64,000 nt of DNA, taken from sequence record KY608965.1. One strand, given 5' to 3'. The notes beneath the pieces were generated by a model, which did not search any database, was not told the DNA's origin, and saw only the letters and a list, made by a program, of their open reading frames with translations. Every line of letters begins with the position of its first letter. Within the stretch, counting starts at the first letter, position 1. Positions 3,806-58,350 of this stretch are shown one piece after another. Both the position numbers and the translations under genes were made by a program. Source of the DNA: Escherichia phage phiEC1.

Positions 3806-5610
3806 TGAAACAAAATATTAAAATTGGTAACGTCGTTGATGACGGACAAGGCGATTACCTTCGTCGAGGTGGTGAAAAGATAAATGAGAACTTTGACGAA
3901 ATCTATTATGAATTAGGTGATGGTGAAGTTCCTTATGCCGCTGGTGCATGGAAGACTTATGATGCGGCTGATGGTCTTAATCTTAAGGCTGCTTGGGGTA
4001 AATCTTATGCAATTAATACTACTTCTGGGCGAGTTTCGGTAAATCTTCCTAAAGGGACAATTGCAGACTATAATAAAGTTATTCGTGCTCGTGACGTATT
4101 TGCAACTTGGAACATTAACCCTGTTACTTTAATTCCGGCAAACGGAGACACGATTAAAGGTTCTTCATCTCCAGTAGAAATTAACGTTCAGTTCTCTGAT
4201 TTAGAATTAGTTTATTGTGCTCCTGGACGTTGGGAATACATCAAGAACAAACAAATTGATAAAATAGTTAGCTCTGACATTAGTAACGTTGCTCGTAGAG
4301 AATATCTGGTTGAAACCCAAGGTCAGACCGATTTCATGGATGTTTTTAACGGGACCTCTTATAACGTTAACAACATTCGCGTAAAACATCGTGGCAACGA
4401 ATTGTATTATGGTGATGTATTCAGTGATAATAGTGATTTTGGTTCCCCAGGCGCTAATCCTGGTGAACTGGTTGCACTTGATGGATTTAATATTAGATTA
4501 CGCCAACCATGTAATGTTGGGGACACTGTACAAATTGAGACATTCCTAGATGGTGTTTCTCAGTGGCGTAGTTCATATACTCGTCGCCAAGTTCGCATTT
4601 TAGATAGTAAATTGACTGCTAAAAAGTCTATTGATGGAAGTATTTACGTCACTGATTTGAGTACGTTCCGATCTATTCCATTTACAGCATTTGGTATTAA
4701 TCCTACAGAACCACCTAACCCGAATTCGTTAGAAGTTCGCTTCAATGGTATTCTCCAAGAATTAGCTGGTACTGTTGGAACTCCTATTTTCCGTTGTGAA
4801 GGTGTGGATGCTGATTCTGAAGAGTCATGCGCTAATCTCGGTGGGACATGGACTCAATCATATACAGATTATGCGATTGAATATACTGATAATATCCCTA
4901 GCGCAATTCTGTTTGACCGTCAATTTGAAGACCAGGACATTATTACCATCACATGGTTTAATAACGATTTAGGAACTCTTCTTGAAATGGAAGAAATCCT
5001 TGATGTCGCTGATGAGAAATATGTTTCTCAAGGGTCTAACATTGAAATTACCGGTGACGTTGCATTAACCGATTTCGATAAAATTGGATGGCCTAATGTA
5101 GAACCTGTTCCTAAGTACGAACGTGAATTCTCGACTATCTCAGCAATATTTGATACAATTTATCCTGTCGGGACTATTTACGAAAATGCGGTTAACCCTA
5201 ATAATCCGGCCACTTATTTAGGTTTTGGTTCGTGGAAAATTTGGGGACAAGGCAAAGTATTAGCAGGTTGGAATGATGACGCGTCGGATCCTAATTTTGC
5301 ATTAAATAATAATGACCTTGACATCAACGGTAACCCTACTCATACCGCAGGTGGTACTGTTGGTGTAACAACTATCACATTAGAAAATGCCGATTTACCA
5401 GCTACACAAACAGATGAAAAGGTTCTTATTTCTGATGATAATGGTACGGTAATTATAGGCGGTTGCCAATATGACCCAGATGCAGAAGGTCCTATTTACA
5501 CTAAATATCGTGAAGACCATGCAAAGACTAACGGATCTCATGTTCCAGCGCGTTCTATAACTAATATTCAGCCATCTATAACTGTATACCGTTGGGTAAG
5601 GATTGCATAA
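3805..5610 (+). CDS. 10: Baseplate wedge protein gp10
   Basis: 601 aa (T4 gp10 is 602 aa); TAATG overlap with gp9 stop; synteny. Confidence 0.9.
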
Positions 5611-38218: not shown

Positions 38219-38512
38219 TTATTTACGGAATGAAAGGAATGCTGGTGCTCGGAATGGAGTATCATCTTTAGAGTATTTAACTAATACGACCATTGGTACC
38301 TCTGTTTCTAAATGACCTGTCACTACACCGACAAAAATTTGATCAGTGTGCTCAGGGTCACGAAAGTTTTTAAGAGGTTCCATAGCAATATGGAATGCAC
38401 CTGGGAATACTCGATTCAATTCGTCAATCACAGCTTCGTTAAAAACATCATCTGCCGGGATAACATCTTCAACTACTAGTTCTTGACCATTAAAGCGAAG
38501 CATAGATTTCAT
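38219..38512 (-). CDS. Hypothetical early protein (alt.-1 position)
   Basis: 97 aa from ATG at 38512 with GAGGA Shine-Dalgarno, directly downstream of early promoter 38542..38571; longer track ORF would overlap the promoter. Confidence 0.6.
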   Translation of the reverse strand: MKSMLRFNGQELVVEDVIPADDVFNEAVIDELNRVFPGAFHIAMEPLKNFRDPEHTDQIFVGVVTGHLETEVPMVVLVKYSKDDTPFRAPAFLSFRK

Positions 38513-38541
38513 AACGTTTTCCTCATGTTGTTGATGGGATG

Positions 38542-38571
38542 ATAGTATCACACATCCATGTGTTTGTAAAC
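38542..38571 (-). promoter_or_regulatory. Early promoter overlapping the alt stop codon
   Basis: On - strand GTTTAC-N18-(GGATGTGTGA)TACTAT. Confidence 0.65.
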
Positions 38572-51142: not shown

Positions 51143-51441
51143 TATTTTATTCCTAAGAAAATTTCAAGAATACGAATGTTATGCTCGCGCCGGTCTTTAT
51201 TAATTTCAGCAACGTTTTTATTAATTGACGTACTTCTAACGTTTGAAGAAATAAATTTAATCATATGACTTTTGAGTTGTTGCAAATCCAACCCTTTTTC
51301 TTTAGCAGCTTTACGAAGAGCTTTACCTGCTTCATCTAGTGCCTTTGCTGCATCTTTGTCATAATTGCCAAGTGACATTCCACGGCAGATATCAATATAC
51401 TCATCAGACCGTTTGATGTAATTCTCTAGTAATGTTTTCAT
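51142..51441 (-). CDS. Hypothetical early protein
   Basis: 99-aa ORF with ATG; early promoter 51470..51499. Confidence 0.55.
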
Positions 51442-51469
51442 TTAGATTTCCTCAATTATCCATAGGAGC

Positions 51470-51499
51470 ATTATACTCTGCTCCTGAGAGTTTGTAAAC
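51470..51499 (-). promoter_or_regulatory. Early promoter for ORF 51142..51441
   Basis: On - strand GTTTAC-N18-TATAAT; -10 bracketed by a 7-bp inverted repeat. Confidence 0.55.
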
Positions 51500-52874: not shown

Positions 52875-52904
52875 ATAGTATCACCATCCTTGGTGTTTGT
52901 AAAC
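52875..52904 (-). promoter_or_regulatory. Early promoter for alc
   Basis: On - strand GTTTAC-N18-(GGATGGTGA)TACTAT. Confidence 0.65.
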
Positions 52905-52906
52905 CG

Positions 52907-54040
<1,134 letters not shown>

Positions 54041-54057
54041 TCAGTTAGTTTTTTTAA

Positions 54058-54087
54058 ATTGTACCACAATCCTTGTGGTATGTAAAC
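54058..54087 (-). promoter_or_regulatory. Early promoter for rnlA, overlapping denA stop
   Basis: On - strand GTTTAC-N18-TACAAT. Confidence 0.6.
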
Positions 54088-54505: not shown

Positions 54506-54519
54506 GGGACCGAAGTCCC
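54506..54519 (-). other. Intercistronic hairpin between nrdB and denA
   Basis: On - strand GGGAC-TTCG-GTCCC, short U-tract only. Confidence 0.5.
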
Positions 54520-54523
54520 GTCC

Positions 54524-55702
54524 TTAGAAATATTTTTTGTATGAATTGATTACATTTTGGTCTACATCATTATCAATTTGTGCGACAAGATAAGAACTGA
54601 TTTCAACTTCCTGAGGAGCTGCTTGAACTAAATCAGAGTTCAGATATTCACGAATCCAAGGATACGGATGCTTGGTCGGAGCATCAGTGATTGGGCATGG
54701 CAAACCGCACTGTTTCATACGAGACACAGTCAAGTAATCAACAAAAGCACACATACTCTGCGTATTGATACCTGGACATGTACCATCTTTAAAGAGGTGT
54801 GCAGCCCATTCCTTCTCTTGACTATTTACTTCCATAAAGATATCTACTGCTTCTTGCTCACACTCTTTAGCAATTTGAACCCATTCATCCCCATCAACAC
54901 CAAGTTGGAGCTGTCGAATAATGTACTGAGTGCCTTTAAGGTGGAGTTGTTCGTCACGAGCGATGAACTTCATAATCTTTGCATTACCTTCCATAATTTC
55001 CATGTTCTTATGGAAGTTGAAAGTACATGCAAAAGATACATAAAAACGAATAGCTTCTAAGGCGTTAATAACGTGTAAGCAGAGATAAAGAGACTTCATT
55101 AATGCACGTTTACATTCTTCCACATGCATAAGACTATTTGAATATGCATCCAAATCATATTCATTTTCGGAAAAACATTTAAAAATTTCTTTAGCATTTT
55201 CCCATTCACGTGTTTTAACTAGAACATCATCATAATATTTGCCGATTGATTCCGCACGTTTCATAATTGCTTCATCTAATACAATCTCATCAAATACCTT
55301 CGATGGATCAGTATAAAGATTTCGCATGATATGAGTATATGAACGAGAGTGAATGGTTTCACTGAATGTCCATGTAGCAACCCATGTATCTAATGAAGGG
55401 TCGGAAAGCAATGCCATAAGTACCGCAGATGGTGCCCTGCCTTGGATAGAATCCAATAATGATTGATACTTAAGGTTGTTCGTAAAGATGTTCTGTTGGA
55501 ACTGTGGAAGCTTATTGAACTGCGCAGAGTCCAACATCAAGTTTACCTCTTCAGGGCGCCAAAAAAACGACAATTGCTTTTCAATAAGCTCTTCAAAAAC
55601 TTTATGGCGTTGAATATCGTAACGCGCAAGGCCAAGACCAGAACCAAAGAACATTGGTTCATTCAAAACATCAACTTTTTGGGTATTAAAAACTGTACTC
55701 AT
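54524..55702 (-). CDS. nrdB: Ribonucleotide reductase small subunit (NrdB), uninterrupted
   Basis: 392-aa continuous ORF; di-iron R2 family; synteny. Confidence 0.93.
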   Translation of the reverse strand: MSTVFNTQKVDVLNEPMFFGSGLGLARYDIQRHKVFEELIEKQLSFFWRPEEVNLMLDSAQFNKLPQFQQNIFTNNLKYQSLLDSIQGRAPSAVLMALLSDPSLDTWVATWTFSETIHSRSYTHIMRNLYTDPSKVFDEIVLDEAIMKRAESIGKYYDDVLVKTREWENAKEIFKCFSENEYDLDAYSNSLMHVEECKRALMKSLYLCLHVINALEAIRFYVSFACTFNFHKNMEIMEGNAKIMKFIARDEQLHLKGTQYIIRQLQLGVDGDEWVQIAKECEQEAVDIFMEVNSQEKEWAAHLFKDGTCPGINTQSMCAFVDYLTVSRMKQCGLPCPITDAPTKHPYPWIREYLNSDLVQAAPQEVEISSYLVAQIDNDVDQNVINSYKKYF

Positions 55703-55718
55703 TATATTCTCTCAATAG

Positions 55719-55736
55719 TGACTCATCCATGAGTCA
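55719..55736. repeat. 18-bp perfect palindrome in the nrdA-nrdB intergenic leader
   Basis: TGACTCAT-CC-ATGAGTCA, 16 nt upstream of the nrdB ATG. Confidence 0.8.
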
Positions 55737-55752
55737 ATTATAAACAAAATTC

Positions 55753-58008
55753 TTAAAGCTTACAAGCGGAGCAATCTTCAGCTTTAGGCGTTTCTAACTC
55801 ATAGTCATCTGTACCAGAACCATCTCGAGTGTTATGATAGTAAAGGTTCTTACCACCAAAGTACCAGAAGTAAAGCAAGTCATCAAGCATTACAGACATT
55901 GGCACTTTGCCTTTCTCAAAGACTGAAGGGTCGTAGTATGTATTAGCAGAAGCAGATTGGCACACCCATTTTAACATGATAACAACTTGTGTCAGATAAG
56001 GCTTATTACCTTTCTTAGCGAGTTTCCACGCATAGTCATAAAGACCCATGTTGTGTTCAATATTAGGAACTACTTGACGGAAATTACCTTCTTTAGATTC
56101 TTTAATACTTACTGGGCCACGAGGTGGTTCAATACCATTTGTGCTATTTGAGACCTGGCTGCTTGATTCGCATGGCATGAGAGCACTGAGTGTACTGTTA
56201 CGAATCCCGTGTTCTTTAAGTTCGGCTCGTAGTTCTTCCCAATCACATACATAGTTTGGGGCTGCGATTTGGTCAATCTTTTTATTGTACCAGTCGATAG
56301 GTAATTCGCCTCGAGACCATTTAGTGTCTGAATAATACTCGCAACGTCCTTTTTCTTTGGCAAGTTTGATTGACGCTTTGATAAGGCCATATTGTAATCT
56401 CTCAAACAATTCATGAGTCAAATCGTTAGCATCTTCGTATGAAGCAAAGTTAGAAGCCAACCAGGCTGCATAGTTAGTAACACCAACACCTAGGTTTCGA
56501 CGCTTTTTAGCTTTTAAAGCTTCTGGAACCGGATAGTCTTGATAGTCTAACAAGTTATCAAGTGCACGTACTTGCACTTCAGCAAGTTCATTAATTTTAT
56601 CTTGGTCTTGCCAATCAAATTTATCAAGAACAAAAGCAGAAAGAGTGCAAAGTCCAATTTCAGCATCAGGACTATTAACATCATTAGTTGGAATAGCTAT
56701 TTCACAACATAGATTGCTCTGACGAATAGGAGCTTTTTCACGAATAAACGGGGTGTAGTTATTCGTGTTATCAACAAACTGTGGATAAATTCGAGCAGTG
56801 CCAGAACGTTCAGTCATGAACAATTCAAAGAGTTCTAGTGCTTTGATTCTTTTCTTTCTGATTGTTGGGTCTTTTTCAGCTTTCTCATAAAGCTCACGGA
56901 ATTTATCTTGATCTTCAAAGAACGAGTAGTATAGTTCGCCTGACATTTCGTGAGGGCTAAATAAAGTAATATAATCATTTTTACCAAGGCGTTCCATCAT
57001 AAGGTCATTAATCTGAATTCCGTAGTCCATATGTCTAATACGGTTTTCATCCACGCCTTTGTTATTTTTCAGAACCAACAGGTTCTCTACTTCTAAGTGC
57101 CACATCGGATAATACGCTGTAGCAGCACCACCACGAATACCACCTTGAGAACAAGATTTTACTGCAGTTTGGAAATGTTTCCAGAATGGAATAACACCAG
57201 TATGTCGAACTTCACCCATACCAATCTTAGAACCTTCTGCACGAAGCATACCAACGTTGATACCGATACCAGCTCGTTTAGAAATATATTCAATAATTGA
57301 TGCTGAAGTTTTGTTAATAGATTTTAACGAATCACCGGCTTCAATAACTACACAACTAGAGAACTGGCGGGTTGGAGTACGAGCACCTGCCATAATTGGG
57401 GTTGGCAATGAAACTTGATGAGTAGAAACGGCATCATAAAAACGAATAATATGTTTCAAACGGTCATGAGTTTCGTCTTGATGTAAGGCCATGCCAATAG
57501 CCATGATAGCAAACTGTGGAGTTTCATAAATCTTCCCAGTTGTTTTATCTTTAACTAGATATTTTTCTTTAAGCTGCATAGCACCAGCATAAGTCAGGTC
57601 AAAGTCTCGTTCATGTTTAATCTGTGAATCGAGATAAATGATTTCTTCTGCTGAATATTGAGACAACAGCTCAGGGTCATATTTGCCTTCATTAACACAA
57701 TAAGAAATATGGTCGATAAAAGCAGGTGGTTCAAACTGCCCATACACATCTTTACGAAGTGCAAACATTAATCCTTTAGCGGCAACATATTGATAGTCAG
57801 GTTCTTCGACAGAAATCAAGTTAGCTGCAACTTTAATACAAATCTTCTGGATATCTTTGGTGCTCATCCCATCAACCAGATGAGTCTTAATTTCTTCATA
57901 CAATTCGTATGGGTCGATTTGTGTTCCTTCACACTGCCAAGTTAAGACTTGAATAATTTTCTGTGCATCAAAATTTTGGGATACACCACTGCTCTTAGTT
58001 ACTTGCAT
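55753..58008 (-). CDS. nrdA: Ribonucleotide reductase large subunit (NrdA)
   Basis: 751 aa; active-site region NLCCEI; ATP-cone N-terminus; synteny. Confidence 0.95.
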   Translation of the reverse strand: MQVTKSSGVSQNFDAQKIIQVLTWQCEGTQIDPYELYEEIKTHLVDGMSTKDIQKICIKVAANLISVEEPDYQYVAAKGLMFALRKDVYGQFEPPAFIDHISYCVNEGKYDPELLSQYSAEEIIYLDSQIKHERDFDLTYAGAMQLKEKYLVKDKTTGKIYETPQFAIMAIGMALHQDETHDRLKHIIRFYDAVSTHQVSLPTPIMAGARTPTRQFSSCVVIEAGDSLKSINKTSASIIEYISKRAGIGINVGMLRAEGSKIGMGEVRHTGVIPFWKHFQTAVKSCSQGGIRGGAATAYYPMWHLEVENLLVLKNNKGVDENRIRHMDYGIQINDLMMERLGKNDYITLFSPHEMSGELYYSFFEDQDKFRELYEKAEKDPTIRKKRIKALELFELFMTERSGTARIYPQFVDNTNNYTPFIREKAPIRQSNLCCEIAIPTNDVNSPDAEIGLCTLSAFVLDKFDWQDQDKINELAEVQVRALDNLLDYQDYPVPEALKAKKRRNLGVGVTNYAAWLASNFASYEDANDLTHELFERLQYGLIKASIKLAKEKGRCEYYSDTKWSRGELPIDWYNKKIDQIAAPNYVCDWEELRAELKEHGIRNSTLSALMPCESSSQVSNSTNGIEPPRGPVSIKESKEGNFRQVVPNIEHNMGLYDYAWKLAKKGNKPYLTQVVIMLKWVCQSASANTYYDPSVFEKGKVPMSVMLDDLLYFWYFGGKNLYYHNTRDGSGTDDYELETPKAEDCSACKL

Positions 58009-58071
58009 ATATTCCTCAGTATAGGTTGATAGACATTACTCCAAACGGGATAGTATTTATCCCGTTAATTT

Positions 58072-58097
58072 ATTATACACTTTTAAACTGAAGCGTT
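58072..58097 (-). promoter_or_regulatory. Candidate middle promoter for nrdA
   Basis: On - strand AACGCTTCA (MotA-box variant) then 11 nt then TATAAT; leader hairpin CGGGATA…TATCCCG at 58046..58064. Confidence 0.5.
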
Positions 58098-58350
58098 AAT
58101 TATCCTCAGCAATAATTTCTTCATATTCTTTAGGAGTCAAGACTGTAATATCGAAATAAACCAGAGGCTCTTTTTCCATACCGAATCCACCACAGAATTC
58201 ACGATATTCATAAATTCGTTCATGTGAATGGCAAATGAATCGTTCACCTTTAACTGTGATTTCACTATTCGGTGAAGGGATATCCAGTTCACTTGGATTT
58301 TTCATTTCAAAAATTGTGGTGCCATATGAATTAATAAAACGTAAAATCAT
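58096..58350 (-). CDS. Hypothetical protein downstream of td
   Basis: ATG at 58350 just after td stop; longer track ORF would overlap td by 62 nt. Confidence 0.45.
   Translation of the reverse strand: MILRFINSYGTTIFEMKNPSELDIPSPNSEITVKGERFICHSHERIYEYREFCGGFGMEKEPLVYFDITVLTPKEYEEIIAEDN

Follow-up and report, generated by a model that had tools for sequence, protein, structure and literature searches.

In phage T4, expression of the RNR genes nrdA and nrdB is known to be 'separate and coordinate', and a middle promoter of nrdB was reportedly described by Tseng et al. in 1990. According to Wilson and Edgell 2009 (PMC2790892), the T4 nrdB promoter is located inside nrdB.1/mobE and a weak terminator lies 27 nt after the mobE AUG, right after nrdA; the authors state that the nrdA-nrdB spacer of phages lacking mobE has no terminator, and they had already noted that such phages have a corresponding promoter where nrdA ends. 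MotA boxes are found 12 ± 1 bp from the −10 box (PMC2988021), and the mapped T4 middle starts include PnrdB at 139878 and PnrdA at 142726 (Table 1 of the same paper). Closely related in organization are the PeSL and PmSL cassettes (promoter-early and promoter-middle stem-loops) of T4-type phages, which were described by Arbiol et al. 2010 (PMC2839356) and Comeau et al. 2014 (PMC4122927); in the former, the stem-loop most often lies between −35 and −10 or overlaps the −10 box. A different kind of hairpin is recognized by the protein CsrA, which binds A-N-GGA in hairpin loops and has the SELEX consensus RUACARGGAUGU (PMC6692469).

Here, we have analyzed the junction of nrdA and nrdB in the window, by which we mean the whole stretch of 64,000 nucleotides from Escherichia phage phiEC1 (KY608965.1). 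The window is from a Mosigvirus, an RB69-type T4-like phage; its nrdA-nrdB segment is 96-98% identical to the Mosigvirus phages LH01, TH12, Shf125875, ATK47, and PhAPEC2 and matches 869 T4-like phage records. Both genes are on the − strand and are separated by a spacer of 50 nt, which in the mRNA sense reads TAA-GAATTTTGTT-TATAAT-TGACTCA-TGGA-TGAGTCA-CTATTGAGAGAATATA-ATG. The features of the junction are as follows, with the basis of each in brackets:

55753..58008, − strand: nrdA, RNR large subunit, 751 aa (ORF list and annotation of relatives)
55765..55760, − strand: σ70 −35-like TTGTAA (σ70 scan: TTGTAA-17-TATAAT, 10/12)
55754..55760, − strand: MotA-box-like AGCTTTA, which overlaps the stop codon of nrdA and precedes the −10 box by 11 nt (sequence)
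55737..55742, − strand: −10 box TATAAT (TAnAAT kept in 22/22 variants)
55719..55736, − strand: RNA stem-loop with 5′ arm UGACUCA 55736..55730, loop UGGA 55729..55726, and 3′ arm UGAGUCA 55725..55719 (fold and covariation)
55726..55730, − strand: invariant A-N-GGA, here A55730, U55729, G55728, G55727, and A55726 (invariance and spacing)
55709..55713, − strand: Shine-Dalgarno-like GAGAG, 6 nt before the nrdB ATG (55702) (sequence)
54524..55702, − strand: nrdB, RNR small subunit, 392 aa, no intron (ORF list and annotation of relatives)

Other hairpins are found at the outer borders of the same genes. Between nrdB and denA (54506-54519, − strand) there is a classic GGGAC-UUCG-GUCCC hairpin followed by ACUUUAUUAUG, which is called a terminator by ARNold-based annotations in relatives; UUCG-loop hairpins are the commonest intergenic hairpins (9 in the window and 18-19 in TH12). 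Upstream of nrdA (58044-58099, − strand), a MotA-box-like AACGCTTCA is separated by 11 nt from an extended −10 box, GTGTATAAT (58077..58072), and 6 nt past this box lies an 8-bp hairpin, ACGGGAUA-AAUAC-UAUCCCGU (58065..58045). The predicted nrdA start falls at the base of this hairpin, so that the middle nrdA transcript would have a 5′-terminal stem-loop, unlike the nrdB cassette.

The + strand reads TGACTCATCCATGAGTCA at 55719-55736, where two 8-nt complementary arms (TGACTCAT and ATGAGTCA) flank a 2-nt centre, CC on the + strand and GG on the mRNA-sense − strand. An earlier note on this DNA, made from the letters alone, had described an 18-bp perfect palindrome lying 16 nt upstream of the nrdB start, just after the nrdA stop. 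The location proved correct (the repeat ends 16 nt before the ATG), as did the position and arms, but the centre is not self-complementary, and hence the element is an 8+2+8 inverted repeat and no strict 18-bp palindrome. As RNA it becomes UGACUCA-UGGA-UGAGUCA, a 7-bp stem with the 4-nt loop UGGA, and the 27-mer has a ΔG of −8.0 kcal/mol (z = −3.35 against shuffles). With 3 G-C among the 7 pairs, the tail CUAUUGAG, and no call in a terminator scan, it does not qualify as an intrinsic (Rho-independent) terminator. Perfect inverted repeats with arms of at least 8 nt and a spacer of at most 6 nt number 17 in the window versus 9.5 ± 3.2 in dinucleotide shuffles; therefore, the repeat alone is not significant, and it is conservation and covariation that show the element to be real. 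In the window, the exact pattern is found once, the palindrome has no further copies, and the core CAYGGAYG is not enriched as a repeated word (3 matches versus 4.3 expected). A Rfam search of the whole window gave nothing at the gathering threshold (locally, one meaningless csRNA match with E = 1.1), and a tRNA/tmRNA search found none.

Loci from viral contigs (given our own numbers, L, below) were compared, of which 38 surround nrdB and 80 surround the C-terminal end of nrdA. In all cases with a NrdA identity of ~74% or more and without a homing endonuclease gene directly at the nrdA stop, a hairpin is located 0-3 nt past TAnAAT. A total of 22 distinct sequence variants of the nrdA cassette were collected, and the exact cassette type is present in 189 phage records. 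The stem arms differ between phages (TGACUCA, UGACUC, GCUCA, GGCUCA, AGGCUC, GGACCA, GACCA with G·U, GAGGACA, AGGGAUA, GGGAUA, and ACCACA) with complementarity kept. In an alignment of 18 sequences anchored on GGA, with a 7-pair helix, 86.5% of the cells are paired versus 65.7% in shuffles (0/500), double-sided changes occur in 6/7 pairs, the three central pairs are never broken and show 3 pair types each, and the covariation score is 0.62, compared with at most 0.15 when the partners are slid by 1-3 columns. The element is an RNA stem-loop with a covarying stem, conserved across many T4-like phages, and the expectation of the earlier note that such a hairpin lies in the nrdA-nrdB spacer, where it would be able to influence the relative expression of the two genes, is borne out as far as the structure and its conservation are concerned.

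The same data bear on the idea, also raised in that note, that the repeat is an ideal dimer-binding operator. Near-perfect dyad symmetry in this genome fits a DNA operator for a dimeric regulator, and, since palindromes of this size arise by chance, the repeat might also be functionless. However, the arms are kept in complementarity and not in sequence, and the only invariant bases (A-N-GGA) are asymmetric and specific to the mRNA-sense strand, which contradicts the operator claim; there is also no other copy in the window, and 22 variants together with 189 phage records exclude chance, so that this pair of explanations is extremely improbable. The remark that the palindrome does not match the NrdR box agrees with our search: taking the consensus to be the 16-bp palindrome acaCwAtATaTwGtgt, we found no match within 3 mismatches near nrdAB, and the single match in the window, at 5498, is below the chance expectation.

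The loop behaves differently from the stem. Alignment columns A11, G13, G14, and A15 are invariant, and A-N-GGA is found in 22/22 variants, where N is U, C, or A. The closing pair is C-G in 17/18 sequences and U-A once. The base after GGA, which is the partner of A11, varies from U to C or A and is never G, and the pair is broken without compensation in 5/18 sequences, implying that A is conserved for something besides pairing. The hairpins are weak, with ΔG values from −3.3 to −10 kcal/mol. Neither a small ORF from the loop AUG nor pairing of the 5′ arm with the AUGAGU start of nrdB is conserved (the L005 type has ACGGAC in the loop and the L007 type starts with AUGUCU).

Three features had been overlooked in the earlier note: the abutting TATAAT (55742..55737), a predicted start in the loop, and a linkage to the nrdA 3′ end. 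The −10 box is perfect and directly abuts the repeat. The last nrdA codons (...TGT AAG CTT TAA) include the MotA-box-like GCTTTA, and GCTTTA-N11-TATAAT fits the MotA spacing rule. The SA79RD record annotates a 'T4 middle promoter GCTT(N13-15)TATAAT', whose end coincides exactly with the start of the repeat, and in other lineages an extended −10 box (TGATATAAT) is fused with the nrdA stop. Counted from the −10 box, the invariant A is at the 7th or 8th nt in each of the 22 variants, and it is preceded by a pyrimidine at −1. When the mapped T4 starts were checked against the sequence, PnrdB was found to begin at the 7th and PnrdA at the 6th nt after the −10 box. Since the stem begins 0-3 nt past this box, the invariant A is brought to 7-8 nt past it, where mapped T4 middle promoters start; A55730, the 7th nt, is the predicted +1 of the nrdB promoter and lies inside the loop. 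With such a start, the promoter transcript would lack the 5′ arm, and the hairpin could form only in read-through RNA that contains nrdA. As a general motif, a −10 box followed at once by a hairpin is not enriched in the window (6 versus ~10 in shuffles), and two seeming hairpins with a GGA loop, at 33.9 and 34.3 kb, are inside a + strand CDS and were dismissed as chance. No description of the hairpin or its loop was found in our literature search, including the accessible parts of Wilson and Edgell 2009 (PMC2790892).

The position of the invariant A suggests another explanation, in which the loop is conserved for promoter function, with C(−1)A(+1) and the first transcribed bases forming the start site, and the dyad around +1 acts as DNA, for example, as a non-template-strand hairpin in promoter escape, or is a PeSL relic. 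The constant distance of A from the −10 box and the pyrimidine at −1 are consistent with it, as is an apex shared with early-promoter spacer dyads of the same genome. However, A-Y-GGA is absent from the mapped T4 PnrdA and PnrdB starts and from the positions past −10 in the few TH12 early-type matches listed, which speaks against a general requirement of the start region; moreover, sense-strand stem covariation with G·U pairs is the prediction for an RNA helix, and no known σ70 mechanism uses such a dyad. A constraint on the start site or the initial transcribed sequence is possible for A and not obviously for GGA, and we regard the explanation as a whole as improbable.

The A-N-GGA apex also resembles the binding sites of CsrA/RsmA, which likewise have GGA in an apical loop, an invariant A before it (two bases upstream of GGA, as found in 22/22 variants), and a C-G closing pair, and which are located upstream of a Shine-Dalgarno sequence that often has a second GGA. 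Host CsrA might bind the hairpin and control downstream translation or stability on read-through RNA, or it might protect the 5′ end of promoter-initiated RNA starting with A-Y-GGA; either would be compatible with our main explanation given below. The conserved (C/U)A-N-GGA-N-(G/A) apex, with A and GGA invariant, both N free, and the closing pair nearly constant, fits this proposal, and a second GGA is present in the downstream Shine-Dalgarno sequence, 16-22 nt away, in most lineages (GAGGAAA, GCGGAAA, UAGGAAA, and AAGGAAA in several of them). That the base after GGA is never G argues against selection for likeness to a Shine-Dalgarno or RegB site. On the other hand, the window and its closest relatives have GAGAGAA and thus lack the second GGA (the Shine-Dalgarno-like GAGAG of the window contains none), the base before GGA is mostly a pyrimidine in the nrdA hairpins whereas the CsrA SELEX prefers a purine, and, unlike CsrA/RsmA sites, the element belongs to a phage intercistronic spacer fused to a promoter. 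In a limited literature search, no paper was found that connects CsrA with T4-type phages, and matches to so short a motif are not very specific. Moreover, early-promoter spacers keep GG(A/G) even without a stable hairpin, and GGA in these spacers may be a promoter-family consensus. Control by CsrA is, in our judgment, a possibility on the unlikely side. The broader proposal that the A-N-GGA hairpin, with the start placed in its loop, is a docking site of a GGA-specific RNA-binding protein, most plausibly host CsrA, is doubtful.

The phage endoribonuclease RegB offers another candidate reader, since it cuts GGAG/U in intergenic regions of early mRNAs and, acting alone, does so where GGA is unpaired and the fourth nucleotide constrained (PMC3014915; PMC1702504); loop GGA(U) might then be a cleavage site that inactivates read-through early transcripts. 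Yet the known sites are GGAG or, rarely, GGAU within an A-rich 7-nt consensus in single-stranded RNA: T4 intergenic GGAU was cut at 2/30 sites and needs the A-rich 3′ consensus, cleavage at GGAA is very inefficient, none of the intergenic GGAC sites of T4 has the A-rich sequence that is required, and sites within a structure resist cleavage (PMC1702504). Here the fourth base is never G and the 3′ flank is the stem UGAGUCA, which is not A-rich, and RegB cleavage is very unlikely.

The distribution of the element among related phages indicates which gene it belongs to. Where 1-2 ORFs are inserted before nrdB (L015-L031, L069, and L084), TAnAAT and the hairpin are still directly after nrdA, ahead of the inserted ORF; thus, the element moves together with the 3′ end of nrdA rather than with the ribosome-binding site of nrdB. 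In L032 (1027-1500, on one contig with L067), nrdA and the GGA cassette are separated by an inserted ORF of ~120 aa that brings its own GGGGAC-UUCG-GUCCCC hairpin, so the cassette precedes nrdB there and does not follow nrdA. L069 and L084 have a different common inserted ORF (MFDNI(F/Y)KNGKF…), located after the cassette.

The interval from the nrdA stop to the nrdB start is occupied by a mobE-type homing endonuclease gene in both T4 and LF82-1, and the hairpin is absent there. The earlier note had held that its idea would fail if the palindrome were missing in close relatives with normal nrdB expression, and this is half the case: these two phages lack the hairpin, by mobE insertion, yet their nrdB has its own promoter, and the hairpin is hence dispensable for nrdB expression as such. 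A single homing endonuclease ORF of 213 aa fills the entire gap in LF82-1 (L003, 1500-2141), and the T4 interval (L043, 4217-4917) contains mobE (141 aa) and nrdB.1 (83 aa); the 5′ ends (…TAATGAATTATCAAAAAATCTATAA…) and 3′ ends (…AATGCTTTAAGATGGCATTATGATAAATGTAAATTTAAGGATT…) of the two inserts are near-identical, suggesting that mobE and nrdB.1 of T4 correspond to one gene that has been split.

Distant T4-likes (NrdA at most 67% identical; L076-L123) instead have a GC-rich, terminator-like UUCG/GNRA hairpin, often with a U-tract, in the first 60 nt after nrdA; in L087 and L088 the hairpin is nested in a promoter spacer, TTGACG-CGGGGAGAAATCCCCG-CTATAAT. The nrdA hairpin of the window shares with T4-type C(UUCG)G and terminator hairpins the position directly after a stop codon; in contrast to them, it is not GC-rich, has neither a stable tetraloop nor a U-tract, and has a conserved loop sequence. 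A hairpin after nrdA is thus nearly universal in the sampled phages, and the A-N-GGA version is clade-specific.

Compared with the described systems, the nrdA element belongs to the known PeSL/PmSL kind of promoter/stem-loop, and its novelty lies in the A-N-GGA loop and the predicted start within it. Like those cassettes, it is a compact intergenic module that runs on one strand from an upstream stop codon to a downstream Shine-Dalgarno sequence and ATG (here a 50-nt spacer, GAGAG, and the ATG at 55702), it combines a promoter of σ70 or Mot-box type with a stem-loop that adjoins or overlaps promoter elements and would act on transcripts from upstream, and it is located at a junction where relatives gain, lose, or swap ORFs. 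The promoter is predicted from GCTTTA-N11-TATAAT and TTGTAA-N17-TATAAT, the −10 box being kept in 22/22 variants. The stem-loop lies just downstream of −10 and spans the predicted start, which is at the edge of the published range; it does not fit the strict sense of the 2014 paper, in which the stem-loop is upstream of the promoter (PMC4122927), whereas the 2010 paper allows it within or overlapping the promoter (PMC2839356). Also unlike PeSL/PmSL, the nrdA stem-loop is weak, AU-rich, and without a U-tract, the upstream half of the promoter is within the nrdA coding sequence and not in an AT-rich spacer, and the loop stays unchanged throughout a deep clade in which the stem turns over, a pattern not seen in the accessible PeSL descriptions.

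Cassettes of this kind form a repeated family within a genome that goes along with indels or ORF exchange. Four early-type cassettes with apical GGA are found in the window on the same strand as nrdA, each right after a stop codon, giving 5 apical-GGA promoter hairpins including nrdA versus 0.9 expected (P≈0.003); the TH12 genome has 8 such hairpins versus 3.6 ± 1.8 expected, with the sense-strand loop orientation GGA 8 versus TCC 1. In the denA→rnlA spacer (54031-54086, − strand; TAG-TTTACA-TACCACAA-GGA-TTGTGG-TACAAT), the 17-nt spacer of a T4-early-type promoter is itself a hairpin (54062-54080) with apical GGA; T4 and T4-type loci have ATGCTT-CCACA(C/T)-GGA-GTGTGG-TACTAT at this place, so that the Mosigvirus and T4 types are related by a compensatory change from A-U to C-G, with U·G as the intermediate. 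The cassettes at 38512-38570, 51441-51498, and 52887-52906 (− strand), all right after stop codons, read AACACATGGATGTGTGA, AACTCTCAGGAGCAGAG, and AACACCAAGGATGGTGA and have a dyad or hairpin with central GGA in the spacer; a crude ORF caller put a start codon inside the last of them, and the start of its downstream gene is provisional. Across the whole TH12 genome (L124-L127) there are 24 early-type promoters TTTACA-N17-TAnnnT, many with the spacer consensus …ATAGGACTATG(T)-TATAGT and GG(A/G) at spacer positions 9-11, and three near-identical copies read GTTTA-CAACCA-AGGA-TGGTTG-GAG-TATAAT. GG(A/G) keeps its fixed position even with only a weak dyad (…ATAGGACTATG-T-TATAGT); therefore, spacer GGA may be a promoter-family consensus or reflect shared descent, the argument for a family of GGA-reader hairpins is weakened, and the early spacers are not used here to explain the nrdA loop.

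On balance, we lean towards the explanation that the conserved stem-loop is part of a PeSL/PmSL-type cassette that insulates nrdA read-through and restarts nrdB, with a reader of the loop in addition, and consider it moderately probable. The cassette directly 3′ of nrdA would be composite, one half being the stem-loop and the other the middle-type promoter of nrdB. The transcript of this promoter, beginning at loop A55730, would lack the 5′ arm, leaving the hairpin to read-through RNA from nrdA, where it would most likely insulate the two units by partial attenuation and/or as a barrier at the 3′ end of the nrdA message, and the promoter would restart transcription for nrdB. Insulation plus restart would yield the 'separate and coordinate' expression of nrdA and nrdB. 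The T4 nrdB middle promoter has the same role, as a restart promoter giving nrdB its own transcript besides nrdA read-through, but its start inside nrdB.1/mobE has no associated A-N-GGA hairpin. Positional analogues, namely the weak terminator at T4 mobE and the UUCG/GNRA hairpins of distant T4-likes, lend support to insulation by analogy; the weakness of the hairpin, the want of a proper U-tract, its being missed by the terminator scan, the statement of Wilson and Edgell that this spacer has no terminator, and the fact that T4 and LF82-1 do without it count against it. Insulation alone does not explain the invariant loop either, and the constancy of A-N-GGA would suggest that something additionally reads the loop sequence.

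The importance of this finding is modest: what looked like an operator palindrome becomes a well-supported RNA structure, of which 22 compensatory variants exist in nature. This structure is connected with a known restart promoter and with the PeSL/PmSL cassettes that organize T4-type genomes, and it becomes apparent what is displaced by the insertion of mobE-type homing endonuclease genes at the nrdA-nrdB junction. If the hairpin were a docking site, early read-through and middle promoter-initiated nrdB mRNAs would differ in a structured site and could be treated differently, and the hairpins with apical GGA in early-promoter spacers might follow the same principle. If a host or phage protein reads the loop, the phage would distinguish read-through from promoter-initiated mRNAs in an essential nucleotide-metabolism operon, and, were CsrA that protein, this could be the first case that connects T-even phages with regulation of the CsrA type.
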